Source of the DNA: Candidatus Poseidoniaceae archaeon
GTDB taxonomy: Archaea; Thermoplasmatota; Poseidoniia; Poseidoniales; Poseidoniaceae
Reading direction: 5' to 3'
NCBI GenBank assembly: GCA_964218365.1
Contig: CAXPMI010000002.1
Span: 1 to 59,486 of the forward strand
Length of the DNA: 59,486 nt
Part shown: positions 12,778 to 54,102 of the stretch, in pieces
How positions within the stretch are numbered: the stretch's first letter is position 1
Layout of the letters: each line of letters begins with the position of its first letter
Notes under the pieces: generated by a model
Told to the model about the DNA's origin: nothing
Database searches by the model: none
What the model saw: only the letters and a program-made list of their open reading frames with translations
Position numbers and translations under genes: made by a program

Positions 12778-13326
12778 ATGCGTGGCAGAATATTCGCTAT
12801 TCTTGTGGCTTCCAGTTTGTTCCTTGCAGGATGCACTAGCGATAGTGACGAAAATGATTCATCTACGGAGTACTCAGAAATGCCGGAGACATTCCCACAG
12901 TGGGATGAATTAACAGATGACGGAACAAATTGGTCAAGTGCAAGATTGAATGGTCAAGCATACATCGTTATTTTCTCCGCACAATGGTGCAATTTACCTT
13001 GTATGGATTTGATGCACACGATTTGGAACACAATCGCTGATATTCCTGTAATGGTTATGTCTACAGATAGCGGTTCAGAAATCTCATTCGAAGATTGGCA
13101 TGATTCAGCAGATGCACACGATGACGATGGTGACGAACCGAACAACAATTTGACGTCATACAGATTTTTATTAGGAGATGAAGAGGGTAACTATCTAGGA
13201 ATTGAATCACCTGGCACAACAGTATTCGTAAACAAAACTGGAGATATTACGTGGTATGGTAAATCATCTGCTGCGAACGATGCTGACCTGATTACTGAGC
13301 AGTGGGAAATAGCCAATCAAGACTAA
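12778..13326 (+). CDS. Thioredoxin-fold (redoxin-like) lipoprotein with CxxxC motif
   Basis: Lipobox LAGC; IFSAQWCNLPC; PGTTVFVNKTGDI cis-Pro region. Confidence 0.7.
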   Translation: MRGRIFAILVASSLFLAGCTSDSDENDSSTEYSEMPETFPQWDELTDDGTNWSSARLNGQAYIVIFSAQWCNLPCMDLMHTIWNTIADIPVMVMSTDSGSEISFEDWHDSADAHDDDGDEPNNNLTSYRFLLGDEEGNYLGIESPGTTVFVNKTGDITWYGKSSAANDADLITEQWEIANQD

Positions 13327-13724
13327 TTCCAAAATGCATCGTCTTCCCAAGGAAGTCCTACAGCGATTCCTAGAATTTCCAAGACAACATAGTTGAAGAA
13401 AAGATAGCATAGTATTGCTATTGTGAATGCTAGCAGAGAGGTGTTGATTACTTTCTGTCTCTCACGCTTTACATCATCCAAAGTACAGACCCCTTGATTC
13501 CTAAAGTAGGATATGAGGCCGAACGCAACCATAATTGCTGCTACGCCAAGAACTGTGGGTCTAAACCACCAGTAACCGTCTTTTCCCCAATAAAGAGTGT
13601 CTGATAGTGCTGCTGCGGTGGAAACCGAAGCAAGGCCGAACATGACCATCACAACAGATGGCAGACAGCACAATGATGCAACTATGGTAGAGGATGAAAT
13701 CCACTTCCACAGGCCCTTGTCCAT
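13323..13724 (-). CDS. Small membrane protein with vicinal Cys pair (MerT-like)
   Basis: ASLCCL in TM1, three TM segments, loop Cys (GVC). Confidence 0.55.
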   Translation of the reverse strand: MDKGLWKWISSSTIVASLCCLPSVVMVMFGLASVSTAAALSDTLYWGKDGYWWFRPTVLGVAAIMVAFGLISYFRNQGVCTLDDVKRERQKVINTSLLAFTIAILCYLFFNYVVLEILGIAVGLPWEDDAFWN

Positions 13725-13769: not shown

Positions 13770-14462
13770 TTAGAGATTATTTCTCACCGTTTTACACCCA
13801 ACGGAGAAGTCTGGATTCTCCTTCATTGCCTGGGCGGTTTTGTCCAATAAATCGTCTTCAGCTGTTCGTGGATTTTCTCCAGCCTTTCTCCACGAGACTG
13901 AGACAAATAGATCGTCGTGGACAAAAGATTCGACCTGAAAATTATCCAAAATAATGTCTCTGGGATTAAGGTGCATTCCGAGTTTTTCGGCTTTTTGAAC
14001 CGCCTCTTTTGCGGTCCAGATTTCAATTGCCATTTTTGAATTTTCAATTAGAAAATTTAACTCAGCATCCTTAGCCATCATGTCAAATGCGTTGGTCTGA
14101 ATCTGCCGATTTTTTTTCTCAGCATCAATCCCAATCCAATACCCAGGCTCTACCAATGCACATACCGCCCAATCCTCACAATGGCCTATACTGATCCCGG
14201 GTAAAGGCTCATTTTTCCAAACACCGCTTATCCAAGAGAGGTATGGTGCGCGATGCTCGGTACGAAGAACTTCTAGAGAGTCCAGAGGTAAGCCCCATTC
14301 TTGAACACACTTCTCTAGTAGAAGGCGCCCCGAATTGTGGTCATTTAGGCGCTTTTGTGTCGCACGAGGGATATCTTCAGAGAAAATACTGCCACAATCT
14401 TGAATTGGCATCCTTGCAAGCAACATCTTGGGACCTTGCAAAGGACCCATGATTTCCATCAT
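13770..14462 (-). CDS. 4'-phosphopantetheinyl transferase (Sfp-like)
   Basis: SIGH, IGIDAE and WTAKEAVQKA motifs of the PPTase superfamily; immediately follows the PKS stop. Confidence 0.88.
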   Translation of the reverse strand: MMEIMGPLQGPKMLLARMPIQDCGSIFSEDIPRATQKRLNDHNSGRLLLEKCVQEWGLPLDSLEVLRTEHRAPYLSWISGVWKNEPLPGISIGHCEDWAVCALVEPGYWIGIDAEKKNRQIQTNAFDMMAKDAELNFLIENSKMAIEIWTAKEAVQKAEKLGMHLNPRDIILDNFQVESFVHDDLFVSVSWRKAGENPRTAEDDLLDKTAQAMKENPDFSVGCKTVRNNL

Positions 14463-14463
14463 T

Positions 14464-17400
14464 TCACCTCGAGAGAGTGAATCTTTGGTCTTCCGGGACT
14501 TCGCCCATTGCCTTGAGTCTCAATCCCTTGAGAGACAATACAGGCGCATCATCATCGCCAACAACGACGACGTCGTGAACGGTCACACCTGCATCTTCTG
14601 TTGCAACCTTAACAGAGCGCACTCTGAGTTTTTCTTCTGCTTCTGGAACTCTTAGCATAGTGGACCACTCAATCCCAATTGGTAGGCTCGAGAACCCTTC
14701 GCTTTCCATTGCCGCTAATCCGGCATTCTGGAAACCGGCTTCAATCAGCATTGGTAATGCCTCGAGCAGTACCTCTTCTCCATCACTTTCTAGGGCGAAT
14801 TGATCTGTTGAGGGGAGTTGATGCCTCATCAGTGCAATTCCATCCACTCCGCCTTCGATGCCACGTAGTACACCGCCGTGTGACTGGAATCTAGGGCCAT
14901 GGAAGTATCTCAGGTAAATGAAACTGGAATGGTGCTGAAGTTCCCCGTCTGGAGGTGTGCCAATTTCTGGGAGTGACTTCACTTCACTCTCTAGGAATGG
15001 TGTCATGTCTTCACTACTTGCAACCAGCCTTACCTTAGCTTCGTGGTGCAGCCTTGGCTCGCCAAATACCTCGCCCTTTGAATTAACCAAGTCTGATACG
15101 AGTCTACACTTTACCCAACTCATATCACCCTCACTAGAAACTAATTCTGCCTCGACACGAACAGTCATTGCACCTTTCATTATCTTGATAGGCAAACCGA
15201 ATGTAACCTCTTCAAATCCAGCCAAATGATTGCCAGGGAGTAATAGCAGTGAATTTTCTGCAAACATCTCCATAGCCATCACACCTGGGTGATAGGGTAC
15301 TCCATCGATGGCATGGTCGCTCAAGAATGGGTGGTCTCTCACAGACAAGGTGCATTGTGAGGTTAGTGACTTACCTTCATCTAGTGAAATTAATTTGTCA
15401 ATCAGAGGGAACCTTCGTGGGTCTGCTATAGCTGCTGCCATTTCTGCTGGAAGTTTCAATGGTGCATCTCTGAATGAGTCATAGCGGTCCATCAAACCAA
15501 GGGAGCCGCAGCCGAGGACTCTCCTCTTTCCTCCTGCGAGTGCCTCTCCGACAAATATCTCGACTCCATCCTCAACAGCCAATGTTTCAATTCCTGCTGA
15601 TTCGAATACCGCCTCAATTGAACCGCGTGTTGCCATTCCGACATCTCTCCAACCAGTCCAACCGATTGCAACTGCTCTGCATTCTGAGTTAGCGGTTAAG
15701 CGTGCCATCTCTGCATCGAGAATTGAGTTCGCTGCTGCATAATCGGTCTGTCCACCGTTTCCGAATCTTCCTGCAACGCTAGTGAAAGCACAGGCGAATC
15801 TCAGTGAGTCTGTTACACAAGATGTTAATGCCTTCCAACCATCAATCTTGACTCTGACAATCAAATCGAATGTACTCCAAGTCTTATCCGCTACAAGTTT
15901 AGATTCCTCTAATCCTGCACCGTGTACGATTCCAGTTACGGTTCTTTCACCAACTGCAGCGCTAATTGCACCCGAGTCTGTGACATTTGCCGAATGGTAC
16001 TCCGCGATGTTTCCTGTCGATTCTATTTCGCTTATTGTGCGGTAGATGTCCATGCTTCTTGTCAACTTCATCCACGCATTGTTCCATTCGACCATTGTGA
16101 CCTTGCCACTCTCTGATTCTGCAATCAACGACTCTCTAAGTGCCATCTTCCTCGAATTAAGTTGCTCTTCTGACCAGTCGAGCCATTGTGAAGTTTCTTC
16201 GACAAGTCCGCTGCGCCCGAGTAATAGGAAGGTTGCTCCTGCATTTTTGCTCGCATTTGCTACACCGATGATCGATGCAGCGGTTACTCCAGAACCTCCA
16301 CCACTGACCAACCACACATCGTCTGATTGAAGCGATTTGACCTCATCCACTAGGTCTTCTGCAAAGCAGACTAGTGTCCACCTTCGAAGGTCTCTATCGA
16401 TTCCGATTTCAACCTCGCCACCTGCATTGAGCATATCATTCTCGATAATCTCTGCAGCGGCATCCGCATCAATTATCAATTCAGGATGCAGATCGAGTGC
16501 TCGACATCGGAGGTTTTCTCTCTCAAATGCATATGATTTCGTTACACCGCTAGCACCACAAGCAAGGGAATTGAATCTCTCACCTCTGTTTCCGTGCCTG
16601 CCATCTAGGGCAGAAACGCTACCAACGATTCCCGAGGATAGGACACCTAATTGGGTATCAAGTCCCTTCAGTAGACCAAACCAAGATTGCGCTGCTAAGT
16701 TCACTTGGTTCGATGCTCCTTCGCTTTCCCATGAACTGCCTGTCAAGGAAAGTGGGGCAAGGTGAATGATTCCGCCTACGCCTGAAATTCTCGAACAGAT
16801 TTCTGCGATTTGCTCTTCGCTGCCTGGGTCTGCTCTGTATGTATGTCCGGACAACTCTTCTTGCTCAGTTACCGATTTCGCACCGAATTCAAATCCGACC
16901 TTAGCAACTGATAGGCCCTTAGTTGAGAGTCTAGTTGCTAATGCATCTGCAACTCCCCAACTATCCTGAGTTAGAACGATTGTTCCACCAATTGGAAGAC
17001 CTTCTGCAACAGCAGGGCACGGTTCAACTTCAACTTGCCATCTGCGTGTCTTGGAAGCTGTCGTCATTACACTTGGTTCTGGTTTATTTGTTTGAGCAGA
17101 AACTTGCGGCTGTGGAGAGGTAGAAGCAGTCACTGGGGTCGGTGGCTTGGCAGGCTCGCTTCCACCTTTCATCTTGACAATGTATGATACGAAGTGGTTC
17201 AATGTAGGATGGTCCGATAACACGAAATCTTCGTCTACTGGCAGGGAGAATATTTCTCTAACGTCCCCCATAATCTCCGCTTGCTTTACCGTATCAATTC
17301 CCAACTCACCCTCAAGGTCTTGGTCCATTTCAATGAAGTCTTCAGGATATCCTGTATGCTTAACGACCACGCCGATTAGTTTGGGCTCAATATCGCCTGT

Positions 17401-20400
17401 ATCACCCGTATTTACTGCACTAACATGGATTTGATCTGCTTGGGCCTGAGGGGCAGCTACGGGTTCTGGCTCTGCAGGTGTTGGTACAACCGTTGGCGCA
17501 GTTGAGGTGGCTGGAACACCTCCCGTCATTTTCACAATGTAATCTACGAAGTGATTGAGAGTTGGATGTTCGGATAGAACGAAATCCTCGTCTACAGGTA
17601 ATGAGAATATTTCTCTGACATCACCCATGATTTCCGCTTGCTTGACTGTATCAATTCCCAATTCTCCTTCTAGGTCTTGGTCCATCTCAATGAAATCTTC
17701 AGGGTATCCGGTGTGCTTGACAACTACCGCAATCAACTTTGGTTGAATTTCAGATTCATCGCCGGAGGCTTGTGCTGGTGGTGTGACAGCCTCTGCAACA
17801 GGTGTTTGCACAGGTGCTTCAACTGGAGGCGTCGGCTCCACAGCCTCTAGAGGCGCTGCAACAGCAACAGGTGCTTCTCCGCCCTGCATTTTGTGAATAT
17901 ATGCAATCATGTGATTCAATGTTGGATAATCCGAGAGAATGAAATCCTCGTCTACAGGCAGTCCAAACTTAGCACGGATATCGGCCATGATTTCAGCCTG
18001 TTTGACTGTATCAATTCCCAACTCTCCTTCCAAATCTTGGTCTAATTCAACGAAGTCTGCAGGATATCCAGTATGGTTTACAACCACTTCAATCACAATT
18101 TGAGTCGTATCTCCTGTTGGCACGGATGCCGGCGCAGGGGTTGGAATCGGAGCAGGGCTCGGCTCCTCTGCGACTGGAACAGGATCTTGCTTGACTAGGA
18201 TAGGCGCTGCGACAACCGGGACTGAAGAGACAGATTCCGCAGACGGAGTTGCGTATTCAGCTCCTTGAATACCACCATGTAGGTTATTTTCACCGTCCAC
18301 ATATGCAACTAGTTTATTCTTCAAAACACGTAACTCTAGATTAGAAGTGCCGGCTTGAGATTGACTCCAAGCCATCAATTTCGCCTTGTCAATTCTATCT
18401 CCTGTATACTCGTATTTCCTTACTAGTGAAAGCCCGATTTGGCTACCGAAACCTGCTGCGAATCGCATTCCATACTTCAGATTTGGATAATCTCCACCTT
18501 TGGAAAGATTGAGATTTCCTAGTTCTGGGTCAACCTCTTTGTGGTTAGCAATAGGTGGAATTCTGCCAGTCAATAATCCATAGAACATCGATGCATCTTC
18601 AATTCCAACGCCCATAGGGTGACCAGTGAAACCTTTGGTATTTGCAATAACTAATGAGTCTGCACTTTGACCAAATGTCTCACGCAATGCTTTGACCTCT
18701 GCTTGTGCAGAGCCCCCTCTTGCAGGGGTGTATGTTTCATGGGAGAAGAATACGGTGCTTGGTGCCATTTGGTGCCTATCAAGACCCCATTGCCCTTCCA
18801 TTTCTGTGATGAATTCATTGACGGTTTGGGCGACGTGGTCCACATCTAAACGAGTGCCGTGGAATGCTGAATTCGAAATTCTGCTACCGAGAATTTCCGC
18901 CATCGGTTGAACACCTCTAGCTTCAGCCTCAGACTTTCTTTCAACTACGAATGCTGCTGCACCCATACCAAGAATCAATCCATTTCTTCTCTTGTCGAAA
19001 GGCAAAGCGGTTTCTTCAACCACATTGTGAGTCGATGCGGCACCACTAGCGGCAAATCCTGCACCGATCCATTCCCACAAATCATCGCCAGTAACGTCGT
19101 CTGCAGAGATGATTACCACTCTGTCACATCTGTCATTTGATAGCCAATCTTCTGCAACGCCAAATGCCGCAGTTGCTGAGGCACATGCGAGATTGATTGT
19201 GGTATTCGGCCCTCTAATACCCACATGCTGTGCGAATTGTGAATGGCCCATGTTTAGAATTTGGAAAAGATATCTTCTGTCGAATCTACCCTCTCCATCG
19301 TCGCCGTTCATCTTTGCATGCTTCGCTGCCATCTGGTGGCCAGCGAAACAAGATGCGAATACGATACCGGTTCTGTCTCTGTATGCTGCAGGCATTTGCC
19401 AAGAACGGATTAGTCGCAATCCACCCTTACCAACTTGCTCAACAGGTGTAAGAGGAATTCCTGCATCCTTGAGTGCAATCAATCCAGACGCACAAGCTAA
19501 CTGGGTTGTGATATCCCATGCTGCGGCAATCTTTGCTTCGATTCCAAACTCCTCTTCTGGGTCAAATGCAGACATGACGCCCGCCAATTGTGGAATGTCG
19601 CCGAATTCCTTTGCAGCCTCCATTCCTACGCTGCCATCTCTACCTTTGATTAATCGAACTAGGTTCTTGTCTAGCAGTCTCTGTTTGTATTCATTACTTA
19701 CCTCAGAAATGCAAGTCTCTCCTCGAACTAATTTCTCAAAGTTACCTTCATCGAATACTCTTTCTCCACCAGGTAGACCAAGCGAAATACCAGTAACCAC
19801 GTATGGGTCGACTGCTCTGTCATCCAATTTGGCGACTCGTGCTTTACTCTGGGTAGTTGGAGCGGAGGTAATCCACCTTGTGATGTCTCCTGGTGTTTTT
19901 GCTACTGTAATGTCCCAATCAGGGTCAGTACTACATCGAGCATGAACTGTTGTGATTACATTTTGAATCTGGTCATCACTCATTCCTAGAACCGCACGCA
20001 TGTCGACATTGCCTTGACAGAACTTGGCAGGATAACCCGTATGAGCAGCAATCAGTTCTCCCACTAGCGCCTTCTTTGCTGCGTCTGGGTCAACATAAGT
20101 ATCACTAGATTTTACAACGGTTTGAGTTACAACTTCGCCACCCTTTGATGGAAGTGGCTTACTTCTCTCTCTGAGCGGTGTTGTAGGTTTGATGGAACCT
20201 CTTTGAGCTTCGATTGGTCCAGCACGGAATGCTTCGGTTAGATGCGGGCTATCGCGGCCGGGCCAATTTGGTGGGCGACCGGCTAATGCTAGTGTTCCTA
20301 GTGCGGATAGGAAGGTTGCGATTCCTCCTGCCTTCGGATGATTTGTCATAACAGGAATCGCTTGTTTTCCTTCCAAAATTTGTGAGGCGAATACCGTTAG

Positions 20401-23154
20401 AGCCCTCTTTGGACCGACTTCCAAAAAGATCCTAGCTCCTGCGTCATACATCGAATTGATTTGTGATGTCCATTCTACGCTAGATGCCATCTGGGGTGCG
20501 AGTTTTGACAGAACAGCAGTCTTGGAGTCGCCACCGTCATCCATCGGATACCAACCTCCGTCGACGTTACTGGTGATAGGAATCTTTGGCCAATTGATTT
20601 CAAGACCTTCGAGGAATCTTCGAAGTGGTTCGTTTGCAGGAGCCACGATTCTTGAGTGGAAAGCGTGACTAGTTGCTAGTGCAACGGTTTGAAACCCTTC
20701 TGCCTCAAACCTTGACATCGCTGCTTTGACAGGCTCTGTTTCACCTGCAATCACTGTCATCTTTGGAGAGTTCTTGTTCGCTGCAATGACATATCCATCT
20801 ATTTCTGCGATGATTTCTGCAATTCTCTCGTAAGGAGCAGTAACACTAGCCATCAATCCCTTGTCGTCAATCTCAACGCTTCCCATTTCCGTTCCACGTG
20901 CAGCGGCTGCTCTTAGAGCGCCGTCCATGTCTAAGATCCCTGCACTCATCAGAGCAGCATATTCTCCAAGGCTGTGTCCTGCAACCATGTCTGGTTGGTG
21001 ACCATGGGCATTGAGTGCTGCCTCAATAGCGAGGTCTGCGGTTAGCATTGCGGGTTGAGTATATTCTGTTTGCTTGAGTTTATGTTCGGCTTCTTTTTTC
21101 TCCCCATCTGTGAGGTTCTCACGAAGTACGAATGAGGAAAGCGTTTCTCCATCTAGAACGTCGACCATGGTCACGTCTGCCTTTTCCCAAACTTCTCCAA
21201 CTCCAGTATATCTTCCGGACAAGTCGTTCGTCATGCCGACATATTGGCTGCCTTGGCCAGGGTACATGTGAGCGACCTTTGCTTGGGATGGCATTGCAGG
21301 CTGGTCACTGATGAGAATACCTTGGCTCATCAAGAAGCCCCATTTCCCTGCATCATCAATCGCTTTGAGAGCTAGGTCTTTTCGTTTGTTGAATTCTGCC
21401 CAAGATGTTGCACTTATCGCCATTCTTACTGAATCGCTCACTTCGTAAGACCAGTGTTCTGGCAATGTGAAAGAGAGGCGAATTCCCTTTGGGTCATCGT
21501 CAAAATTAGAACCGGTGATCGAAATTGCAGACAACTTAGATTTGACTGCATCAACTGAGTTTCCTGACAAGAGTAGTAATCCGCCCTCTATCGCCTTAAG
21601 TTCGTCATGTGTCATCGATGGCTTAGAAGAACTGGATGTTGAGATGCCAGCATATGCTTCCCATCTACCGCTCCACTCCTCAACTATGTCTGCGTGATAA
21701 TCCTGAACATATTCTTCGAGAGTTACGTGGAAATTAGTTCCACCAAATCCAAATGCGGATATTCCTGCTCTTCTTGGGTTTGATTCTGGCTTTGCCCAAT
21801 CTAGAGCTTTTGTTGGCACGAAAAATGGAATTTGGTTCCATTCAACTGTTGGATTAGGAGTTACGAAGCCTGCGCTTGGCGGTATTGTTGCGTGGTAAAC
21901 AGCGTTACAGGCTTTCATTATACCTGCAATTCCTGCGGCTGCTTTCAAGTGCCCAATTTGGCTCTTCACTGAACCAACTGCGATGTGGTCGCCACCGTCT
22001 AGTCCCTTCCAAAGCAGGGAGAGAGTAGACAATTCGGTAGCATCTCCAACTTTGGTTGAAGTGCCATGCGCTTCAACCAGTTCTACGGTTGATGGGTCAT
22101 AGCCAGCCTGTGCATATGCTCTACTAACCGCTTGAACCTGACCTCTCTGACTAGGCGCAGTAATTCCCTTCCCTCTACCATCAGATGAACCCCCTACTCC
22201 TCTGATTACCGCTTTGATATCGTCGCCATCATCAATCGCATCCGATAAGCGCTTTAGCAGTAGAACTCCAGCTCCTTCACCCATAACGAAGCCATTTGCC
22301 CTAGCATCGAAAGGCGTAGAGTGTGATGGTGAAAGCGCTCCGATTGCGCTAAACTTCGCATAGGTTGCAGCTTCCATACAGCGGTCGGTTGCTCCAGCAA
22401 GCATCGTATCGACCTGTCTAGTTTGCAATAATCGACAGGCATCGAGTAAAGCAGCCATTGATGATGCGCATGCTGCATCTGTAGAGTAGTTTGGACCTTG
22501 AAGGTCGAGAAGATTTGCAACTCTTCCACTTACGACGTTAGCCAATTCTCCTGGCATTGTGTCTTCATCGATGCGAGGTGTGCCCTCGCACATTTTCTCA
22601 ACCATTGCATCGGCTTGTTCGGGAGTTGCTCCGTTGTCGATTGCGATTTGACGCATTTCTGCACTGTAGACTCGAATGTTGGATTCCGAACGGTTTTCCC
22701 CACCAAGGGCATTAGCGAATATTACGCCTGTACGCGCTCTGTCTAGCGTTTTTCCTCCTTCACCATAACCCGCGTTGTCGATTGCATCTGCTGAAACCGT
22801 TACAGCCCAAAGTTGGCAGGGGTCGATTTGAGGAAGAGTTCCCGGAGGCTGCCTCCATCTTCGCCAATCGAACTCATATCCTTCAACAAAGCCTCCGATT
22901 TTCGAGTATGTCTTGCCTTCAGTCACATTGCCCGGAGCGCCATTCTCCCAGTAAATGTCTGGGTTCCAGCGGTCTTTTGATACCTCTTTAATCGAGACAT
23001 GCGCATCGATTATGTTCTGCCAAAATTCGTCAATAGAGGTTGCATCGGGCATTAATGCAGCCATACCGATAACTGCAATTGGTTCGAAAGGAGCTTGATT
23101 CAGACCATCTACTTGCTTTCCGTCCGCTGTAGTAACCGACATGAAATCACTCAC
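14464..23154 (-). CDS. Type I FAS/PKS (PfaA/HglE-like): KS-AT-(degenerate ACP)-KS-ACP-ACP-ACP-KR-DH
   Basis: KS1 DAAC229ASS/HGTST/IGHLK; AT PGQGSQ/GHS728LGE/HAFH; KS2 NLAC1324ASA/SHET/TGHPMG; three LGIDTVKQAEI ACP repeats; KR SGGGSG/HGAG/DY2472AAAN; DH HPFLSDH2614AIDGVPYHPG. Confidence 0.93.
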   Translation of the reverse strand: MSDFMSVTTADGKQVDGLNQAPFEPIAVIGMAALMPDATSIDEFWQNIIDAHVSIKEVSKDRWNPDIYWENGAPGNVTEGKTYSKIGGFVEGYEFDWRRWRQPPGTLPQIDPCQLWAVTVSADAIDNAGYGEGGKTLDRARTGVIFANALGGENRSESNIRVYSAEMRQIAIDNGATPEQADAMVEKMCEGTPRIDEDTMPGELANVVSGRVANLLDLQGPNYSTDAACASSMAALLDACRLLQTRQVDTMLAGATDRCMEAATYAKFSAIGALSPSHSTPFDARANGFVMGEGAGVLLLKRLSDAIDDGDDIKAVIRGVGGSSDGRGKGITAPSQRGQVQAVSRAYAQAGYDPSTVELVEAHGTSTKVGDATELSTLSLLWKGLDGGDHIAVGSVKSQIGHLKAAAGIAGIMKACNAVYHATIPPSAGFVTPNPTVEWNQIPFFVPTKALDWAKPESNPRRAGISAFGFGGTNFHVTLEEYVQDYHADIVEEWSGRWEAYAGISTSSSSKPSMTHDELKAIEGGLLLLSGNSVDAVKSKLSAISITGSNFDDDPKGIRLSFTLPEHWSYEVSDSVRMAISATSWAEFNKRKDLALKAIDDAGKWGFLMSQGILISDQPAMPSQAKVAHMYPGQGSQYVGMTNDLSGRYTGVGEVWEKADVTMVDVLDGETLSSFVLRENLTDGEKKEAEHKLKQTEYTQPAMLTADLAIEAALNAHGHQPDMVAGHSLGEYAALMSAGILDMDGALRAAAARGTEMGSVEIDDKGLMASVTAPYERIAEIIAEIDGYVIAANKNSPKMTVIAGETEPVKAAMSRFEAEGFQTVALATSHAFHSRIVAPANEPLRRFLEGLEINWPKIPITSNVDGGWYPMDDGGDSKTAVLSKLAPQMASSVEWTSQINSMYDAGARIFLEVGPKRALTVFASQILEGKQAIPVMTNHPKAGGIATFLSALGTLALAGRPPNWPGRDSPHLTEAFRAGPIEAQRGSIKPTTPLRERSKPLPSKGGEVVTQTVVKSSDTYVDPDAAKKALVGELIAAHTGYPAKFCQGNVDMRAVLGMSDDQIQNVITTVHARCSTDPDWDITVAKTPGDITRWITSAPTTQSKARVAKLDDRAVDPYVVTGISLGLPGGERVFDEGNFEKLVRGETCISEVSNEYKQRLLDKNLVRLIKGRDGSVGMEAAKEFGDIPQLAGVMSAFDPEEEFGIEAKIAAAWDITTQLACASGLIALKDAGIPLTPVEQVGKGGLRLIRSWQMPAAYRDRTGIVFASCFAGHQMAAKHAKMNGDDGEGRFDRRYLFQILNMGHSQFAQHVGIRGPNTTINLACASATAAFGVAEDWLSNDRCDRVVIISADDVTGDDLWEWIGAGFAASGAASTHNVVEETALPFDKRRNGLILGMGAAAFVVERKSEAEARGVQPMAEILGSRISNSAFHGTRLDVDHVAQTVNEFITEMEGQWGLDRHQMAPSTVFFSHETYTPARGGSAQAEVKALRETFGQSADSLVIANTKGFTGHPMGVGIEDASMFYGLLTGRIPPIANHKEVDPELGNLNLSKGGDYPNLKYGMRFAAGFGSQIGLSLVRKYEYTGDRIDKAKLMAWSQSQAGTSNLELRVLKNKLVAYVDGENNLHGGIQGAEYATPSAESVSSVPVVAAPILVKQDPVPVAEEPSPAPIPTPAPASVPTGDTTQIVIEVVVNHTGYPADFVELDQDLEGELGIDTVKQAEIMADIRAKFGLPVDEDFILSDYPTLNHMIAYIHKMQGGEAPVAVAAPLEAVEPTPPVEAPVQTPVAEAVTPPAQASGDESEIQPKLIAVVVKHTGYPEDFIEMDQDLEGELGIDTVKQAEIMGDVREIFSLPVDEDFVLSEHPTLNHFVDYIVKMTGGVPATSTAPTVVPTPAEPEPVAAPQAQADQIHVSAVNTGDTGDIEPKLIGVVVKHTGYPEDFIEMDQDLEGELGIDTVKQAEIMGDVREIFSLPVDEDFVLSDHPTLNHFVSYIVKMKGGSEPAKPPTPVTASTSPQPQVSAQTNKPEPSVMTTASKTRRWQVEVEPCPAVAEGLPIGGTIVLTQDSWGVADALATRLSTKGLSVAKVGFEFGAKSVTEQEELSGHTYRADPGSEEQIAEICSRISGVGGIIHLAPLSLTGSSWESEGASNQVNLAAQSWFGLLKGLDTQLGVLSSGIVGSVSALDGRHGNRGERFNSLACGASGVTKSYAFERENLRCRALDLHPELIIDADAAAEIIENDMLNAGGEVEIGIDRDLRRWTLVCFAEDLVDEVKSLQSDDVWLVSGGGSGVTAASIIGVANASKNAGATFLLLGRSGLVEETSQWLDWSEEQLNSRKMALRESLIAESESGKVTMVEWNNAWMKLTRSMDIYRTISEIESTGNIAEYHSANVTDSGAISAAVGERTVTGIVHGAGLEESKLVADKTWSTFDLIVRVKIDGWKALTSCVTDSLRFACAFTSVAGRFGNGGQTDYAAANSILDAEMARLTANSECRAVAIGWTGWRDVGMATRGSIEAVFESAGIETLAVEDGVEIFVGEALAGGKRRVLGCGSLGLMDRYDSFRDAPLKLPAEMAAAIADPRRFPLIDKLISLDEGKSLTSQCTLSVRDHPFLSDHAIDGVPYHPGVMAMEMFAENSLLLLPGNHLAGFEEVTFGLPIKIMKGAMTVRVEAELVSSEGDMSWVKCRLVSDLVNSKGEVFGEPRLHHEAKVRLVASSEDMTPFLESEVKSLPEIGTPPDGELQHHSSFIYLRYFHGPRFQSHGGVLRGIEGGVDGIALMRHQLPSTDQFALESDGEEVLLEALPMLIEAGFQNAGLAAMESEGFSSLPIGIEWSTMLRVPEAEEKLRVRSVKVATEDAGVTVHDVVVVGDDDAPVLSLKGLRLKAMGEVPEDQRFTLSR
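17170..18110 (-). repeat. Three tandem ACP-domain repeats (~360-nt period) with Pro/Ala-rich linkers
   Basis: VVV(N/K)HTGYP.DF.E.DQDLEGELGIDTVKQAEIM repeated three times. Confidence 0.9.
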
Positions 23155-23950
23155 CCATTATGCTTGAGGGCACCATCGTAATCGAATACCCTGCATCAAC
23201 ATGGATACACTGTCCAGTGACACCTGAGGAGAGAGGACTTGCAAGCCAAGTCGTACACCCTGCTACGTCTGATTGTGTTACATTTCGGCGAAGTGGAGAA
23301 TTGGCTGCGACGTGATCCAAGATATTGTCAAAGCCTGGAATTCCGCTTGCTGCGATTGTCCTTATTGGGCCGCTAGAAATCGAATTTACACGGTGTCCCT
23401 CTGGCCCAAGGTGGCAGGCTAATTCTCGTGTCCAGCATTCAAGGGCCGCTTTTGCCATGCTCATGATTCCATAAGACGGAACATGCCTAGTCGAGGCAGC
23501 ATAGGTTAGTGTGACTGTCGAGGAACCAGGGTTGAGGTATGGTAATGCGAACTTCAGACAGCGCTGGAGTGAGTTCGCAGAAATTGTATATGCCGTGTTG
23601 ATGCTTTCATCATCGACAAACAAGATTGGCCTATCGAAACATTCTCTCGGGGCGAATCCAATTGCGTGAACCATTATGTCTGCTTTCAGACCAGGGTTGT
23701 CTTTACTGAATGCATCGAAAAATTCCTTCGTGTCTGCATCGGATGCAACGTCTAGGGGGTAGAACCCCGCGATTGCAGGAAGTTTGTCTTTGAGTTGGAA
23801 AACTCTTGACATGAATCTCTTTTGATAACCGAGGTACAACGTCACCCCTGCCTCTGCAAGACTCTTACAAATCGCCCATGCGATTGAGTCTTCACTTGCC
23901 ACTCCGAAAACAAATGCAACTTTACCTTGTAAACCAAGCATCTTTGGCAC
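23147..23950 (-). CDS. fabI: Enoyl-ACP reductase FabI (SDR)
   Basis: GVASEDSIAWAI, HAIGFAP, YGIMSMAK catalytic motif, ISSGPIRTIAASGIPGF; GTG start; overlaps the PKS start by 8 nt. Confidence 0.9.
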   Translation of the reverse strand: MPKMLGLQGKVAFVFGVASEDSIAWAICKSLAEAGVTLYLGYQKRFMSRVFQLKDKLPAIAGFYPLDVASDADTKEFFDAFSKDNPGLKADIMVHAIGFAPRECFDRPILFVDDESINTAYTISANSLQRCLKFALPYLNPGSSTVTLTYAASTRHVPSYGIMSMAKAALECWTRELACHLGPEGHRVNSISSGPIRTIAASGIPGFDNILDHVAANSPLRRNVTQSDVAGCTTWLASPLSSGVTGQCIHVDAGYSITMVPSSIMGE

Positions 23951-24059: not shown

Positions 24060-25223
24060 CTAAAGATCCTCAAAATCAAAATCATCATCCAAATCATCTA
24101 AGTCATCGAAATCTAAGTCGTCATCGAACTCTTCTTCGATTTGCTCCTCTGAGATTCCTGCCTTCTTCATAGCCTTGCGGCCTGCTTTGTTTGCCTTCCT
24201 TTCAGCCTTAGCGACCCTCTTTGCTTCCTTAGCTGCAATTTTCTGTTTTCCGGCCTTCTTTGTTAGTTTTGAAATCAGGACTAGAAGGACGATTAATGCG
24301 ATTAATCCGCCACCGGCTATTCCGACCAATTGTAAATCATCATTTGAAACAGATTCAATACCAAATGCGCCACCTGTTGAGGCACTTCCCGAGACTTGTG
24401 CATCAACTGTTACATCGATGTAAGGGGCTGAATCATCTGTTAACGAGTAAGCACGTAAATTAATTTCAAAATTGAAACTCTCATCTGGGAGTTGATCGAT
24501 GCCAAACAGCATAAATCCTGCATTTGAAGTAGAACCAGGAGTTACAACCTCTCTGTAAAAATCAACTCCAAAGTAGAATGGAGTTACACTATAAAATGAG
24601 TGCGTGATGCCTAAACTACTCAATTCCTCTAAGTTCATAATTTCTACAACAATGTCGTCATCGACGTTACCATCGTTGAATAAAGTCAGTTGAACTTGAT
24701 AGAATCCCTCATCATCATCAATTTTCTCGTCAATTATGACTGTGCTCTTATCTTGCACTTGGAACGTCATCCTAGAATATGGCATTGATTTTACTTGGCC
24801 GCTAGCTTCTGAACTGGAACCAAGTTGACCGATTGGGATTAGTATTGGCTCTTGGCCCACACTTTCAATTGTAGCTGTGATATTGTAATCTTCAGTTGCT
24901 ACTTCAGACCTAGGTGAAGCAGAGAATGTTGCGATAAAACTTGCATCTTCTCCTGCTGCCAACTCAAAGGATGATTCTGACAAAATTAGAGAAAAGCCAT
25001 TTCCATCAACACTTCCATCGACGTTGATTTTCTGATTTAATGAGCCAGTGTTAGAAACCACGCAGTTTACATTCACTGGAGCATTTTGCTCTGGATGCAC
25101 GTTTATTTCAATTGTTTGTTGGTCACAATCGATGTCCACACCAATGGGCGAAACTTGTGCTTGAGAATGAATAGGTGTAAACAAACAAGTTAGAAGGAGT
25201 GAGATGAGAATGACTCTCTTCAT
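24060..25223 (-). CDS. Membrane-anchored surface protein (Ig-like; resembles MGII choice-of-anchor T family)
   Basis: Signal peptide (start MKRVIL), beta-rich domains with N.G...D motifs, C-terminal TM, basic then very acidic tail. Confidence 0.7.
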   Translation of the reverse strand: MKRVILISLLLTCLFTPIHSQAQVSPIGVDIDCDQQTIEINVHPEQNAPVNVNCVVSNTGSLNQKINVDGSVDGNGFSLILSESSFELAAGEDASFIATFSASPRSEVATEDYNITATIESVGQEPILIPIGQLGSSSEASGQVKSMPYSRMTFQVQDKSTVIIDEKIDDDEGFYQVQLTLFNDGNVDDDIVVEIMNLEELSSLGITHSFYSVTPFYFGVDFYREVVTPGSTSNAGFMLFGIDQLPDESFNFEINLRAYSLTDDSAPYIDVTVDAQVSGSASTGGAFGIESVSNDDLQLVGIAGGGLIALIVLLVLISKLTKKAGKQKIAAKEAKRVAKAERKANKAGRKAMKKAGISEEQIEEEFDDDLDFDDLDDLDDDFDFEDL

Positions 25224-25269
25224 TGTTTCACCACTACACCCGAGATGAATCAAGGTCATGAAGTCTTGG

Positions 25270-26112
25270 TTAAATCGCACCGTAGATTCGCTCAGGCAAG
25301 TCAACGTGCGTGTTGTACAGAACCTCTTCGTCTAAACCTGCTTCAAGGAGTTGCCTAGTTCTCTTGGGTACGGTTTTCGGCCCTAGAACTGCACCAGGCC
25401 TCCTTGGGTCATCCATGTAGTCGGTTTCAAGCATGAAACCATGAGATGAAGACTCAAAGGTACTCATCAATTCCTCGATTGAACCACTACCCGCTAGAAC
25501 GCTAGGAGTTAAGCCGTGAGTGTATGATTCATCAACTCGTGGTGGCGCATAGTGCCTGACCAATTTTTCTCTAGCCAAACCAGCTCTGTCAGCCATTTGT
25601 GCTAACTCGCCATAGGTAAGGTCAGATTCCCCTTCAACGTGAAGTTGTAGTGGAATGTTTTCCCTTGCTGCTAACTCCATGGTTTCTTGCAGCAATACGT
25701 TTGAGCGATTCCAAATTTCATCAGTTACTGGCCAGTGAGGCCTTCCGACTTCCCCAATACCGTGAGCAAGGCCCTCGTGGACATAATGCAATGCAGTTTC
25801 TATGCTATCCCAATAATTCTCTTCCGCCCTTTCTCCTAGTGAATCAAATTGATGAGCAAATGCAGCAGGATGAGGCCCTAAGATGACTCTAACCCCTAGT
25901 CCTAAATCTCTAACTTCTTGTGCCATTGCAATCGTGTCAGCGTAAGTTTCTGAGTGACCTTCTCTCGTCACAGGAGGAGAGGCGAAATCAGGACAATGAA
26001 CCAATACTAGGTCGGTTCCACCAACTCTCTTGAAGTCCCTAGCCGCATCAAGAAAACGACCATTTCTATTTAGATGAAAATGGTCGTCAAGGATTGGCCC
26101 TTTCCAATCCAT
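25270..26112 (-). CDS. TatD-related archaeal metal-dependent hydrolase
   Basis: DDHFH, GPHP, GIGEVGRPH, LQLH and LETDYMDD motifs. Confidence 0.85.
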   Translation of the reverse strand: MDWKGPILDDHFHLNRNGRFLDAARDFKRVGGTDLVLVHCPDFASPPVTREGHSETYADTIAMAQEVRDLGLGVRVILGPHPAAFAHQFDSLGERAEENYWDSIETALHYVHEGLAHGIGEVGRPHWPVTDEIWNRSNVLLQETMELAARENIPLQLHVEGESDLTYGELAQMADRAGLAREKLVRHYAPPRVDESYTHGLTPSVLAGSGSIEELMSTFESSSHGFMLETDYMDDPRRPGAVLGPKTVPKRTRQLLEAGLDEEVLYNTHVDLPERIYGAI

Positions 26113-26116
26113 GCCA

Positions 26117-26656
26117 TCACACCTTGAACGATTTCTTGTCCGCGAACTTAGATTTCCAATGTACTGCAGACATTGCTACCATGTTCGGGTGTCTAGCATT
26201 TAGAGCAACGGTTCTTCCAGTAGGCCAAATCAATAACTCCAAATCGTGTCTCGTGTCATTTAACCTCAAGCAGCCAAGTCTCTCATCCATAGAGGAAGTA
26301 CCACTTCCTAGATTCATTCTGACATTTTCTATTTGAATAGGCTCTCCGAAGTCGAATGATGCCACAATAGGACCGAGTTCGGTTACAAGTCCCGAATCAT
26401 CTCTACCCATTCTAAGGAGCATTTCTTTGGCAGCAGCACGTGCAGCCTCGATTCGATGAGTTCCATGAACAACGATTCTCCCCTCGGAATCGATAATCAG
26501 TGTTGCGCGTGGCCGATCTAGCATCTTAATGATGACATCACCGTTAACGACTCCACCCAGTCTTTCGACGGCTTCCTCGAGGTCTACCCTTGGTGTTGGA
26601 GTGAATCTTGCGAGCAAATTCTCTACACGAACTTCGATGTTATTTGCACCTGACAT
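26117..26656 (-). CDS. Divergent TATA-binding-protein (TBP)-fold protein
   Basis: Two TBP-like repeats (VENLLAR..DLE..PRATLIIDSEGRIVVHG; PIVASFDFG..LELLIWPTGRTV); EYEPEQFPG loops absent. Confidence 0.65.
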   Translation of the reverse strand: MSGANNIEVRVENLLARFTPTPRVDLEEAVERLGGVVNGDVIIKMLDRPRATLIIDSEGRIVVHGTHRIEAARAAAKEMLLRMGRDDSGLVTELGPIVASFDFGEPIQIENVRMNLGSGTSSMDERLGCLRLNDTRHDLELLIWPTGRTVALNARHPNMVAMSAVHWKSKFADKKSFKV

Positions 26657-26658
26657 AA

Positions 26659-27456
26659 TCACTCCTCCTCTCGATGCGATGAAGCGCCAAGCAATGAACT
26701 CTCTGCATCAGGTAACGCTTTCAGAGCGGATAGCATAGACGCTCTCCATGCCTGTTGAATCGGAACCAGTAGAACTGCATCGTCCCCGTGTTCATCTCTC
26801 AAGTCAGATAAGGCACCACGTAAACGAGAAGCAAATCTTAGGTCCTTTTGTTGATTCAACTCATCCACTGAATTTTCTCTGTTCAATGTCCACCATGTAG
26901 CTGCAAGAGCGCTCGCTGCTTGTAGGCCGTCAGGTTCTCTAGATGGTTGTTCAACTACGTGCTTACGCATACGCTTGATTCCTTTTCTCCATCGCCTTGA
27001 TGTGAAAATTATCCTTGCTAATTTTAGTGGCTTGGTCATTGCTTTGGCTTCCTTTCCTAGGAAATCTGCCCAATTTTCGTCATCCATATCTGGTTCGATG
27101 AAATACACCGGTCTGTCGTGGTTAACCGCAGCCTTGTGAAGCCTTCTTGGTTCAGGGTCAGGGAATCTTCCCACTTGTAATCCTTCGACGCCGTAGGCGA
27201 GCATTTCGAGATAAAGTCCATCCAGGCCTCCGTTGAGAATTGCGCTGTCCAAATTTATTCCGGAGTCTTCTGCCTCTGCTTTTTCTTCCTCAGCCCAAAC
27301 CTCTACTTCTTCGCTGGACCCCATAATTCCCAAACCGTGCCAATTGAGGCGTGGCCTCATTGCATTAGGCAAAACCACTGTCGGTAGGACACCGTGCAAC
27401 ACAATCGTGCCGCCATCGGGGTCCTTCCAGTGGATATCGTCCCAGTCAAGATTCAT
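26659..27456 (-). CDS. Hypothetical soluble protein
   Basis: 265-aa ORF tightly packed with its neighbours; no recognised motif. Confidence 0.7.
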   Translation of the reverse strand: MNLDWDDIHWKDPDGGTIVLHGVLPTVVLPNAMRPRLNWHGLGIMGSSEEVEVWAEEEKAEAEDSGINLDSAILNGGLDGLYLEMLAYGVEGLQVGRFPDPEPRRLHKAAVNHDRPVYFIEPDMDDENWADFLGKEAKAMTKPLKLARIIFTSRRWRKGIKRMRKHVVEQPSREPDGLQAASALAATWWTLNRENSVDELNQQKDLRFASRLRGALSDLRDEHGDDAVLLVPIQQAWRASMLSALKALPDAESSLLGASSHREEE

Positions 27457-27462
27457 AGTGAA

Positions 27463-30400
27463 TCACTGATTGTTGTTTACCCAATCTCTTAGGCTGTCGA
27501 TGTCCCATCCTTGGTCGAAGTAACCTTGGATGGTTGCTTGGTCCCATTGTGGGAATTCTGCCATTGCTGCAGCCATTGTTGGATCTACGCTTGCAGGCGG
27601 TGGACCGGCAGATGGAGGGCCTGCTCTTGGCAGGTCAACTAACGATTTATCGACCTCTTCCTCGTATTCGTATTCATACTCGTATGTACCGTCAGAGGAG
27701 CCTCTCCTAGCAAGTACAACCACAACTAACAGAAGTATCAGAATCAGAGTACTCAATCCAATAACTATCAGCATACCAGAGCCGGATAAGAAACCGCCAT
27801 CATCGGATGCTTCAGCGACGTTGAATGATTTAGAGAATTCTGAGCCGTTCCATAAAGGCATGTTTGATTCTGCATCTACGATGATGAAATACATACCACT
27901 GGTTGGGTTTCCGAATACCTCAAGATCTGTAACGAAGATATTCTCGGTTGTGCCCATTGCAATTTCACCGGTAGTGAAGGTTAACTCAGTTGTAGGGAAC
28001 CCGCCGTCCTTGACTGACTGAATCTCTAGCGTAATGTTGCCATCCTTTGTTCCATCATTCTTCAGAGTGATTTCTAATTCTGGCGTATCGCCGACTTCTG
28101 GGCTCTTTGGAGTCATTCTAACGTCTATGACCTTGAACGATGCTTCTTCGTAAACTAGCCTGTATTCAGAGTTATGAATTGGGATGCTTGAGTAAATTCC
28201 GCTAACGCCTTCAACTCCATCCAATCCGACAATTGGACCACCTGCTTCAATTTCCCATCCAGCAGAATCTCTACCTTCAATCCACAGTACGATGTCAATT
28301 CCAGTAAGTTGTGATTGAGTTGGGCTAACCGGGTCAGGCCACAAATCAACACAGTTTGCGCTTACTAGGTAATCTCCACCTTGGATCTTCAAATCGAGTG
28401 GAGCAGATAGTGGATTTATGCCGAACTTCTGACCAAATACTGGCCAAGTTTGGTTGGTGTCAGCATCGATGTAGTAAGACCACATTAGGTTGACTTCACC
28501 TGCAATCAGTGCAGCGTTCTCTTCGATTACTGCCTCTACGTCCACACAGTTTAGGGCTGAAGATGGCATTGTGTTACCAAAGACTTCCCCGTTCAATCCA
28601 GAACTTGCTTCCCATGAATCATCATCGATTTTTGGTTGGCTTGCATCGACCTTAATCTTGAACGAACCACAACCATTTGCACTGTTTCCATCACAAATTT
28701 GTGCGGTTGTGTCTGTTGCTCCATCTGGCAGGTTCACCAACCTGAATGTGTAGGTGTACTCGTTGTTGATTGGTGGAGCTGTGATGTTAATTGCAAACGC
28801 ACCTCCATCGATTGTATGTAGGGTTGGTCCATCTGTCTTGGAACCATCTGCACCACCTGCTGGATATGCGAAGTATCCCTTACTTCCATCCATCATTGCT
28901 TCTTGGCGTGTTATTTCAACCGTAAATTCACCTTCAGGCAGAACGTAAACTCCGAAGTTAATTCCGTCTACATAGGCGTACTGTCCTTCCATCAGAATTG
29001 TATCACTTGGGAAGACGAAAGCGACCTCAACATCTTGCGAATATGGGTAATCCATATCTGTGAATGAAGGAGTTATTCCGTTTCTGAAATCGAGTTGGAT
29101 TCCATCACTGTAAACCCAGCGCTGCTTGTGTCTGCCACCGCTTTCACTCATCAAAGACGGGTCTCTGTCCATATCCTTGATTCTGAGTTGTGGAATCATG
29201 GTCCCTCCTCCGATTCCAATAATGTCCCAATTCATTCTGATCGGCAAGTCTAGATAGAACTCATCTTCGAATGGATCAATCAAACGACCGCCATCCATTC
29301 TCAGGACCTGTGGTCCGTCGCTGTCGTCTCCTGCTTCGATGATTTCAATGTCTTCAGATTCAGTCCATGCTGTTTCGTTTCTTGGCGAGTAGTAAACAAC
29401 CATGTCATCGGGACCTAAGTCGATTTGGAAGTAGTTGATATCTCTCCATCCGTTTTCATCTGTCGCTTCTACAATTAGGTGGTATTGGTTACCAGCATAC
29501 ATTGTCATGTTCCAAGGTCCTTGGTAGAAAGGAGCTCCCTCGCTAGGATTGTGAAGGCGGTTTCTATCAGAATCTTCTATGAAGAAATTTCTGATGTTAG
29601 GAGTCTTTGCATCCATTGAAACGTATGTAACCAAATCGTTGTCAAATCCTGCCATTCCGCCATCGATTGGATTTCCACCGATGTCAGTTCCTTCGACATA
29701 GATACTAACCTTGCCAGGTGGAATTTGTCCCTTATTTGCGTCATCGCTGAAGGTTCCAGAGTAGTTTGCAGTTGGTAGGTTACCATCGCTGTATATTGTC
29801 AAAATTGCATACTCATCAGGGTCGGCAATTCCATCCATATCTGCATCGTGGTCATACTCGACCCAGTAGTACATGTCTAGACTTGTTGGAGGCTCTGGTA
29901 TGTCCTGAGCGAGAACTCTAACCTTCTGCTGAGCGCTTGGAAGAACCCATGTATCATCGACTAGGTTTCTCCAGTTCGACCAAATAGACTGGTCAAAGTT
30001 CGCTGCTTTCAATACAGAGATGTTGATTAGAGTAGGTGAATAAGTATCGATTGATAGATTGAAAGGTATCGCACAATCAGAATCCGAAACTATTGGTGCA
30101 GGAGGACATAGAGTATCTCCGCCTTCATATCCGTCAATCATGAAGCGGTATGTCGCTTCACCTGCTGCTGTTGAGCCAAGGTCAACATCCCAGTCAAAGT
30201 CGCCACCAATAACACCAGATTTGTTTGAAATTTCAATCCACTCTGAGACAACTGTACCGTTCACGGTTTGGACGTCCCAGCGCTGTAAAGACAAATTGTA
30301 GGCTGTTGGATCTGGGGCTACATCCAGACCTTCGAGTCTGATACTTCCCATTAGGTTGATGTTTTGGTTTGACGTTGCAGCTGTCAAATCCTGCAAATCA

Positions 30401-39534: not shown

Positions 39535-39693
39535 GTTTATGCCCAAACCAAACTAATCTATGATGAAAGCGGTCAAATTTGCACATTAAAAGCAAGTAAT
39601 TATCCCCGATTTACGGAAATAATTTACTCTTTTATGATGTTCAACGTCAAAAATATCCGCTGACCTTATACGATACTTGAGCGATTTACACCC

Positions 39694-46557: not shown

Positions 46558-46599
46558 GGCAACTACTGTCTTTGGATGGCTATTCAATGAATCGCAAGA

Positions 46600-54064: not shown

Positions 54065-54102
54065 GCGCTTTATTGATGGAGGGGTTACTTATCGCAGACA
54101 AC

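Follow-up and report, generated by a model that had tools for sequence, protein, structure and literature searches.

Archaeal membranes are isoprenoid-based, and in the textbook view archaea do not carry out fatty-acid synthesis dependent on acyl carrier protein (ACP). Among iterative enzymes, the enediyne polyketide synthase (PKS) has the ketoacyl synthase (KS), acyltransferase (AT), ACP, ketoreductase (KR), dehydratase (DH) and 4'-phosphopantetheinyl transferase (PPTase) in a single iterative module (KS-AT-ACP-KR-DH-PPTase), the PPTase being dedicated and fused; it makes polyenes without an enoyl reductase (ER) and contains one ACP and no second KS. In this study, we analyzed a DNA stretch of 59,486 nucleotides (the window), which is an entire contig (CAXPMI010000002.1) of the 1.77-Mb genome of a Candidatus Poseidoniaceae archaeon (GCA_964218365.1; 62 contigs, 86% complete, 0.08% contamination). 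It carries an operon of three minus-strand genes, about 10.2 kb in total by open reading frame (ORF) calls, in the order fabI-synthase-PPTase. With moderate confidence, we consider that this operon encodes a self-contained, iterative fatty-acid/polyketide synthase of type I, a member of the Type R family introduced below, and that this enzyme makes saturated long acyl chains for a dispensable lipid.

The closest described systems are the pfa-like "secondary lipid" clusters, of which 20 types were defined by Shulse and Allen (2011; PMC3098273). As the sections of that paper on cluster types describe it, Type R consists of a single pfaA homologue with the domain order KS-MAT-CLF-ACP(3-6)-KR followed by a PPTase gene, and its product is unknown. 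The hosts named there are Koribacter, Solibacter, Elusimicrobium, and Roseiflexus, of which Koribacter has an additional acetyl-CoA carboxylase (ACC) gene between the other two; a word count of the paper gave 0 for "archaea". The operon studied here matches this family, which was thus already named but uncharacterised. It has a single pfaA homologue with the order KS-AT-second KS-like domain-three ACPs-KR, here plus a DH, and a PPTase gene (PF01648) that starts 1 nt after the synthase stop. In addition, the 80 related loci compared below include Korobacteraceae, Elusimicrobiaceae, and Chloroflexia with the same layout. On the other hand, the host is an archaeon, the operon contains no ACC, and the domain labelled CLF by Shulse and Allen keeps its active-site cysteine (Cys) in 91/91 sequences, which may reflect a loose use of the CLF label in print and not a difference in family. 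Furthermore, FabI here replaces the acyl-CoA dehydrogenase (ACAD) and electron transfer flavoprotein (ETF) genes of bacterial loci. The operon is an archaeal, vertically inherited member of a known uncharacterised family, with a FabI-for-ACAD swap.

Other well-defined systems are less similar. The order KS-AT-tandem ACP-KR-DH is shared with PfaA, and TIGR02813 (PfaA) was the best NCBIfam model for the synthase (8e-279), but the score of 928.4 bits is below the cut-off of 1010.1 and the Poseidoniales protein has an extra KS between the AT and the ACPs. No pfaB, pfaC (KS-CLF-FabA-like DH2) or pfaD partners were found, the neighbours being FabI and PPTase only, and no other KS was detected in the 86%-complete genome. 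In polyunsaturated fatty acid (PUFA) synthases the ER is PfaD, an FMN-type enzyme, whereas the ER here is FabI, which belongs to the short-chain dehydrogenase/reductase (SDR) type. This protein resembles FabI of type II fatty-acid synthase (FAS) in its SDR fold, and its best 60 PDB matches are all enoyl-ACP reductases, but translational coupling ties its gene to that of a type I synthase. All KS, ACP (PP-binding), and PPTase (PF01648) matches of the genome lie in the operon, and hence there is no type II FAS for FabI to serve. The type I FAS of animals, fungi, and mycobacteria differ in having an integrated ER and a release domain (thioesterase, TE, or MPT); Pfam scans detected no ER or TE domain in the 2896-aa polypeptide.

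The first-pass annotation of this DNA described three co-oriented and tightly coupled genes, and the ORF calls agree in coordinates, in the 8-nt overlap between the end of fabI and the GTG start of the synthase as called, and in the 1-nt gap between the synthase stop and the ATG of the PPTase gene. An alternative synthase start (ATG at residue 5) would turn the first junction into a 4-nt gap. Pfam and structure matches gave the architecture KS-AT-KS-ACP3-KR-DH (table 1). The earlier inventory of KS, malonyl-type AT, ACPs, KR, DH, trans-acting ER, and PPTase was borne out by Pfam, except that the second KS had been overlooked. This domain (KS2) is FabF-like and matched FabF structures with E-values up to 6e-25. 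Both KS1 and KS2 retain Cys-His-His in all 91 aligned family members, including the bacterial ones, and KS2 is thus not a Cys-less chain-length factor. In the same alignment, the AT serine is present in 91/91 sequences, the arginine in 90/91, and the first histidine of HAFH in 78/91; against TIGR00128 (FabD) the AT reached 197 bits, which is under the cut-off. The KR and DH motifs are invariant in 15/15 sequences, including the His and Pro of the DH motif HxxxGxxxxP. At the DNA level, the ACP region consists of three 233-nt repeats, spaced by 357–360 nt and 70–78% identical; Tandem Repeats Finder called nothing in this region, although a repeat search gave three copies. Residues 1990–2400 matched no Pfam family, and residues ~2030–2370 are probably the structural half of KR.

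Table 1. Coordinates of the operon, its domains, and other features of the window (positions are those of the window)
Feature	Position	Strand	Length or residues	Matches and residues
fabI-type enoyl-ACP reductase, putative trans-acting ER of the synthase	23147-23950	-	267 aa	
Iterative type I synthase KS-AT-KS-ACP3-KR-DH	14464-23154	-	2896 aa	
KS1	21715-23085	-	residues ~24-480	Cys229/His363/His402; PF00109 (ketoacyl-synt) 4.4e-72, PF02801 (Ketoacyl-synt_C) 1.1e-37
Acyltransferase	20329-21267	-	residues 630-942	PF00698 (Acyl_transf_1) 1.2e-35; GHSLG Ser728, Arg753, SHAFHS
KS2, FabF-like	18415-19797	-	residues ~1120-1580	Cys1324/His1472/His1512; PF00109 1.9e-18
Three tandem ACPs	17140-18096	-	residues about 1687-2005	PF00550 (PP-binding), 3 stretches
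Ketoreductase, catalytic part	15643-16047	-	residues 2370-2504	PF08659 (KR) 6.9e-21
PKS-type double-hotdog dehydratase	14494-15408	-	residues 2583-2887	PF21089 (PKS_DH_N) 1.6e-9, PF14765 (PS-DH) 6.2e-7
Sfp-type 4'-phosphopantetheinyl transferase	13770-14462	-	230 aa	PF01648 (ACPS) 1.1e-7, 32.3 bits vs cut-off 25
ORF after the PPTase gene	13323-13724	-	133 aa	MerT-like, weak, 21.7 bits
"Choice-of-anchor T" protein	24060-25304	-		NF041740, 82 bits vs 70
TBP fold	26117-26662			weak match
Upstream neighbour ORF	26659-27456			
ORF	27463-33291	-	1942 aa	no Pfam family
Biotin carboxylase subunit	38194-39546	-		
Orc1/Cdc6	42694-43935			TIGR02928, 415 bits vs cut-off 181
Cytidylyltransferase + DUF359 fusion	45568-46587	-		
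Enoyl-CoA hydratase	51006-51869	-		
GlpX-type fructose-1,6-bisphosphatase	54073-55056	+		PF03320 9.5e-107
Eight-fasciclin-domain protein	3177-7031	-	1284 aa	PF02469 1e-236

The fabI product was matched by the "enoyl-ACP reductase" family adh_short_C2 (PF13561; 2.8e-67, 227 bits vs a cut-off of 27). Its top PDB match was 1ulu from Thermus (189 bits, residues 6–258 aligned), and the alignment keeps the pattern Tyr-x10-Tyr-x6-Lys (TLTYAAS...VPSYGIMSMAK), of which we take Tyr, Tyr, and Lys to be the catalytic residues. The PPTase has the length of a two-domain enzyme; the N-terminal 4PPT_N match (21.1 bits) is under its cut-off of 27, and the protein carries GIDAE and WTAKEAVQK, which we presume to be Sfp-type PPTase motifs.

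Homologues were searched for with residues 960–1660 of the synthase. The family proved very large, with 542 representatives at E ≤ 1e-30, nearly all of the architecture KS-AT-KS-ACPn-KR-DH, and at least 598 loci confirmed among species genomes. The best 80 of these loci, on which all related-locus comparisons are based, belong to Acidobacteriota, Actinomycetota, Chloroflexota, Myxococcota, Gemmatimonadota, Elusimicrobiota, and others, as well as Thermoplasmatota. Upstream sequence is available for 72 loci; in 62 of them, all bacterial, the gene directly before the synthase is of the ACAD family (~565 aa). This gene is often preceded by genes for an Fe-S CCG protein, ETF-beta, and ETF-alpha, and the bacterial loci often continue with an 1820-aa single-chain ACC (BC-BCCP-central-CT) and then a PPTase (e.g., L036:270-20806 and L108). 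The same upstream slot is occupied by fabI in Poseidoniales, one Elusimicrobiota locus, and one locus of another Thermoplasmatota family (f10). Since two unrelated oxidoreductases share one slot beside an ER-less synthase, both FabI and ACAD may supply enoyl reduction; we regard the shared slot as good circumstantial evidence for this function, and the swap supports a fully reducing role. The ACC of bacterial loci points to bulk chain synthesis. In gene order, malonyl supply, synthase, candidate reductase, and PPTase thus recur together in this family.

A reasonable scheme for the Poseidoniales operon is as follows. PPTase would turn the three ACP domains into the holo form, and the malonyl-type AT would load malonyl units from malonyl-CoA. 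Successive decarboxylative condensations would be carried out by the two active KS domains, which probably share the work by chain length. KR and then DH would yield trans-2-enoyl-ACP, and the separately encoded FabI would reduce it in trans, so that the chain grows by a saturated C2 unit per round. A long acyl chain, saturated or nearly so, is the likely product; it may be a "secondary" lipid that the cell can do without, or an optional source of acyl groups made de novo. Chain release would depend on an enzyme encoded outside the operon. It had been claimed that every step of fully reducing elongation is encoded here. This stands for condensation, keto-reduction, dehydration, enoyl reduction, carrier, and activation, and does not extend to chain release or a dedicated malonyl-CoA supply.

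Several observations weigh against this scheme. Neither a PF00975 thioesterase nor PlsX was found in the genome, which leaves chain release unexplained. The operon contains no ACC, and carboxyltransferase genes are equally frequent with and without the synthase (3 in each of five synthase-bearing genomes vs 3, 3, 3, 2, and 3 in five synthase-less ones); their copy number was therefore rejected as a marker of malonyl-CoA supply. FabI scored under all 12 listed NCBIfam FabI equivalog cut-offs (best 212 vs 391 bits) and is thus a divergent FabI. Its action in every cycle is an assumption; if reduction were only partial, the chains would be unsaturated or hydroxylated. Among other synthase-bearing Thermoplasmatota, FabI is unlinked to the synthase in two genomes (G469 and G442) and was not found with this query in three (G365, G385, and G354), indicating that the ER partner is either not universal or lineage-specific. 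The GC content of the operon (47.7%) is at the 99.6th percentile of 262 genome windows (44.5 ± 1.1%), and no RNA run was among the sequencing runs that contain the stretch.

The distribution of the synthase was analyzed in 301 Poseidoniales genomes from three families (f1, the host's own; f2; and f3), using the KS2 region as query (E ≤ 1e-30). The synthase was detected in 194/301 genomes: 144/149 in f1, 2/2 in f2, and 47/149 in f3. A separate search of the host genus detected it in 23 of the 24 other genomes. Within f3, seven genera have it in 47/51 genomes, and six genera, which are the small genomes of the sample (about 1.1–1.7 Mb), in 0/98. In all loci examined (14/14; nine of the same genus and five of other families), fabI is directly upstream of the synthase, and the same holds for a Poseidonia sp. 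locus (L092). A PPTase gene follows in 6/6 same-genus loci that reach far enough and, by iterative search, in 5/5 loci of other families. The upstream neighbours (the ORF at 26659-27456, the TBP-like gene, and TatD) are shared by the three families. Four genomes without the synthase, from three genera, have TatD directly next to the gene found beyond the operon in a synthase-bearing f3 genome, so that a segment of about 10.5 kb is cleanly present or absent at this one locus. FabI was not found in 5/5 high-quality synthase-less genomes of the order, where only SDR matches of ≤31 bits were obtained. The synteny of this TatD/TBP-linked site in three families, with fabI and PPTase linkage kept, indicates that the operon is vertically inherited in Poseidoniales. 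The simplest reading is that the three families received the synthase from their common ancestor and that reduced genomes lost it.

In a sample of the whole phylum Thermoplasmatota, the synthase was found in 105/301 genomes. Outside Poseidoniales, it is frequent in families f10 (9/9), f19 (22/24), f28 (5/6), and f29 (10/10), and was not found in f4 (0/8), f6 (0/36), or f16 (0/35). One family representative is labelled an Asgard group archaeon, from a metagenome-assembled genome (MAG). The locus was first noticed as an exception to the rule that archaea generally lack ACP-dependent FAS; it is real, but less exceptional than was thought, given its frequency in other Thermoplasmatota and this Asgard-labelled MAG. 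In two Thermoplasmatota relatives, one of which is titled EX4484-6, a PPTase match lies within the synthase frame (L060, 4987-16209, and L093, 4999-16146), so that the two proteins are probably fused. N-terminal extensions of 340–750 aa, or leading ACP domains, occur in several other archaeal members.

Phylogenetic trees were built with a fast MAFFT mode and FastTree, a quick rather than careful procedure. The input was the long ORFs of 80 named loci, 15 Thermoplasmatota loci, 6 Poseidoniales loci, and 6 representatives; sequences whose KS1, AT, or KS2 match was missing or too short were dropped, and 91 were kept. The trees contain MAGs of Korobacteraceae, Elusimicrobiaceae, and Chloroflexia; the Type R reference strains, and other Types as outgroups, were left out. 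In the KS1-AT-KS2 tree (91 rows, 1417 columns), Poseidoniales and one further representative (P0127) form a clade on a long stem (support 1.0), within which the branching largely agrees with the families. The bacteria of ACAD type group together in one clade (1.0), and a weakly resolved grade contains Elusimicrobiota, the Asgard sequence, and the remaining Thermoplasmatota. In a joint tree of KS1 and KS2, each paralogue is monophyletic, indicating that the KS duplication predates the family, and a 54-tip bacterial clade is derived in each half (0.99). Poseidoniales are placed differently in the two halves, so that the trees single out neither a donor nor a direction of transfer. Compared with representatives that fall outside the Poseidoniales clade (P0124-P0128 belong to this clade), the domains are 25–53% identical. 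A bacterial origin of the operon is possible from these comparisons, but the earlier statement that it is probably bacterially derived was not upheld: Poseidoniales are a deep clade of their own, and no donor was identified.

An artefact or recent foreign DNA, i.e., wrong joining or binning of a bacterial contig or segment with an archaeal MAG, or else a transfer that took place very recently, would explain the GC content of the operon, its tetranucleotide distance (93.5th percentile of the 262 genome windows), and the bacterial identity of most named relatives outside the phylum. This explanation is highly improbable. Twenty DNA runs from six studies contain ≥90% of the sampled words of the stretch. 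In contigs of four runs from four studies, the PPTase-side edge is bridged in 4/4 and the fabI-side edge in 3/4, depth across the locus is even (8–16), no joints were seen, and contig breaks fall mainly in the ACP repeat region; thus, a chimeric join is excluded, and the continuity over both flanks that the first-pass annotation had left to be confirmed was found, with no coverage break. The archaeal flanks that it had listed were also recovered by family matches, namely Orc1/Cdc6, a TBP fold (weak), and a fusion of a cytidylyltransferase (phosphopantetheine adenylyltransferase-like, late CoA synthesis) with DUF359, 22 kb from the operon. In agreement with its remark that mobile-element genes are lacking nearby, no transposase or integrase family was detected among the 39 further ORFs of the window that were scanned, the scan not extending to its other ORFs. 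Close homologues bear the NCBI names "Candidatus Poseidoniales/Poseidoniaceae archaeon", and the synthase also occurs in a second genome of the host family that consists of one 2.1-Mb contig (G041). Near-identity to a bacterial genome together with absence from related archaea had been named as the pattern that would speak against a domesticated system. No bacterial locus is above about 50% identity to the Poseidoniales synthase, and the gene is found in nearly all sampled genomes of the host family and in most of those of the order, with synteny kept over three families. The locus is archaeal and chromosomal and not a chimera.

Two alternative functions have to be weighed against a dispensable saturated lipid. 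One is that the operon is the primary FAS for membranes, its fatty acids being put on glycerol-3-phosphate (G3P) by PlsC-type acyltransferases to give bacterial-type or mixed membranes, which we consider unlikely. The operon is the only KS/ACP system of the genome and near-universal in f1, as this alternative would predict, and a PlsC/AGPAT-like acyltransferase is encoded next to thymidylate synthase (G000:C11:21309-22070; L023:1258-2022). The corresponding family, PF01553, matched 10/10 bacterial and 0/4 archaeal controls. The protein reached 73 bits against the acyl-ACP-phospholipid acyltransferase model and 69.8 against AGP_acyltrn, both below curated cut-offs, and PlsX was not found. For 270 MAGs, the lipid passages of Rinke et al. 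(2019) report G3P dehydrogenase but no glycerol-1-phosphate (G1P) dehydrogenase, and those authors deduce ether lipids of archaeal type built on G3P rather than acyl esters. Nor did we find lipid data that connect these archaea with fatty acids; "fatty acid", "acyl", and "ester" have 0 occurrences in PMC8473941. In addition, the PlsC-like gene is present in 284/301 Poseidoniales genomes, and five of the six synthase-less genera keep it (g5 17/18, g7 21/22, g10 23/24, g25 14/14, and g26 9/9; g8 5/11; 89/98 altogether). It does not co-vary with the synthase and was rejected as its specific release or acceptor partner. The synthase is dispensable, which argues for an accessory lipid or optional supply rather than an essential membrane pathway. 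The suggested relevance to the lipid divide is weakened by the six genera in which the synthase was found in 0/98 genomes, most of which keep the PlsC-like match.

The other alternative, somewhat less probable still, is a specialised, partly reduced product: FabI would act in some cycles only or would have a different substrate, and the chain, whether hydroxylated, unsaturated, or a polyene, would function in signalling, as a pigment or antioxidant, or at the surface. The pair of active KS domains and the tandem ACPs resemble the PUFA-type synthases that programme reduction per cycle, the best family model is PfaA (928 bits), the patchy and dispensable distribution in f3 suits an accessory metabolite, and, in the cluster descriptions of PMC3098273, the family is named a "secondary lipid" synthase. 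However, no FabA-type dehydratase/isomerase domains, second synthase subunit, tailoring enzymes, or other KS were found in the genome; the reductase is the sole accessory catalytic gene, and the ACC and the second candidate reductase of the bacterial loci point to bulk, fully reduced chains.

The literature searched contains no characterised product of this synthase family, as had been expected, and no paper was found tying Marine Group II/Poseidoniales to polyketide synthase, ketoacyl, or acyl carrier protein (supplements not covered). The supposition that automated surveys may already flag such loci was correct, because the survey portion of PMC10304266 gives type I PKS as the second largest class of biosynthetic gene clusters in marine archaeal genomes. 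Abundant uncharacterised PUFA-type KS in marine data are reported in PMC10308959, whose corresponding sections do not mention archaea. Fatty-acid degradation and G3P backbones, and no synthase, appear in the relevant main-text sections of Rinke et al. (2019).

Additional genes of the window were also examined (table 1). The 133-aa ORF, which comes after the PPTase gene in the genus and in L092, has three hydrophobic stretches and an N-terminal Cys-Cys motif. Although conserved in the genus, it was rejected as a fourth gene of the operon, since one locus (L005) has it inverted and other families lack it. The gene for a "choice-of-anchor T" protein, found in the host family only, lies between TatD and fabI. 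The 1942-aa ORF, whose C-terminal part is conserved beside the TBP/TatD block in other families, is unrelated to the bacterial ACC and was rejected as its counterpart. A biotin carboxylase subunit, 14 kb from the operon, bears on malonyl-CoA supply, and the DUF359 fusion on phosphopantetheine supply, but both are unlinked to the operon. The same contig also encodes an enoyl-CoA hydratase, a GlpX-type ("bacterial") fructose-1,6-bisphosphatase, and an eight-fasciclin-domain protein.

Taken together, a complete candidate pathway (carrier, activation, and the four elongation steps) is present at one site in most sampled Poseidoniales, and the synthase is also frequent in other Thermoplasmatota. 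Via the shared slot, a likely role can be assigned to two unlinked gene types, FabI and the ACAD/ETF set. Because both adjoin the same uncharacterised synthase family, which is very common in soil and marine bacteria, a result on any one member would inform thousands of genomes. With three genes and about 10.2 kb, the question is directly testable, and the clean loss in small-genome lineages offers a natural comparison for lipid studies. A more far-reaching proposal, which we put forward only tentatively and think doubtful, is that Poseidoniaceae have made acyl chains de novo since before the family split and use them in glycerol lipids. If this is true, Poseidoniaceae, which rank among the surface ocean's most abundant archaea, would be natural bearers of mixed archaeal/bacterial membranes. 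Archaeal lineages branch as deep as bacterial ones in the paralog-rooted KS trees; together with the Thermoplasmatota and Asgard-labelled members, carrier-protein fatty-acid synthesis would then be old and widespread in archaea and not a rare bacterial import.

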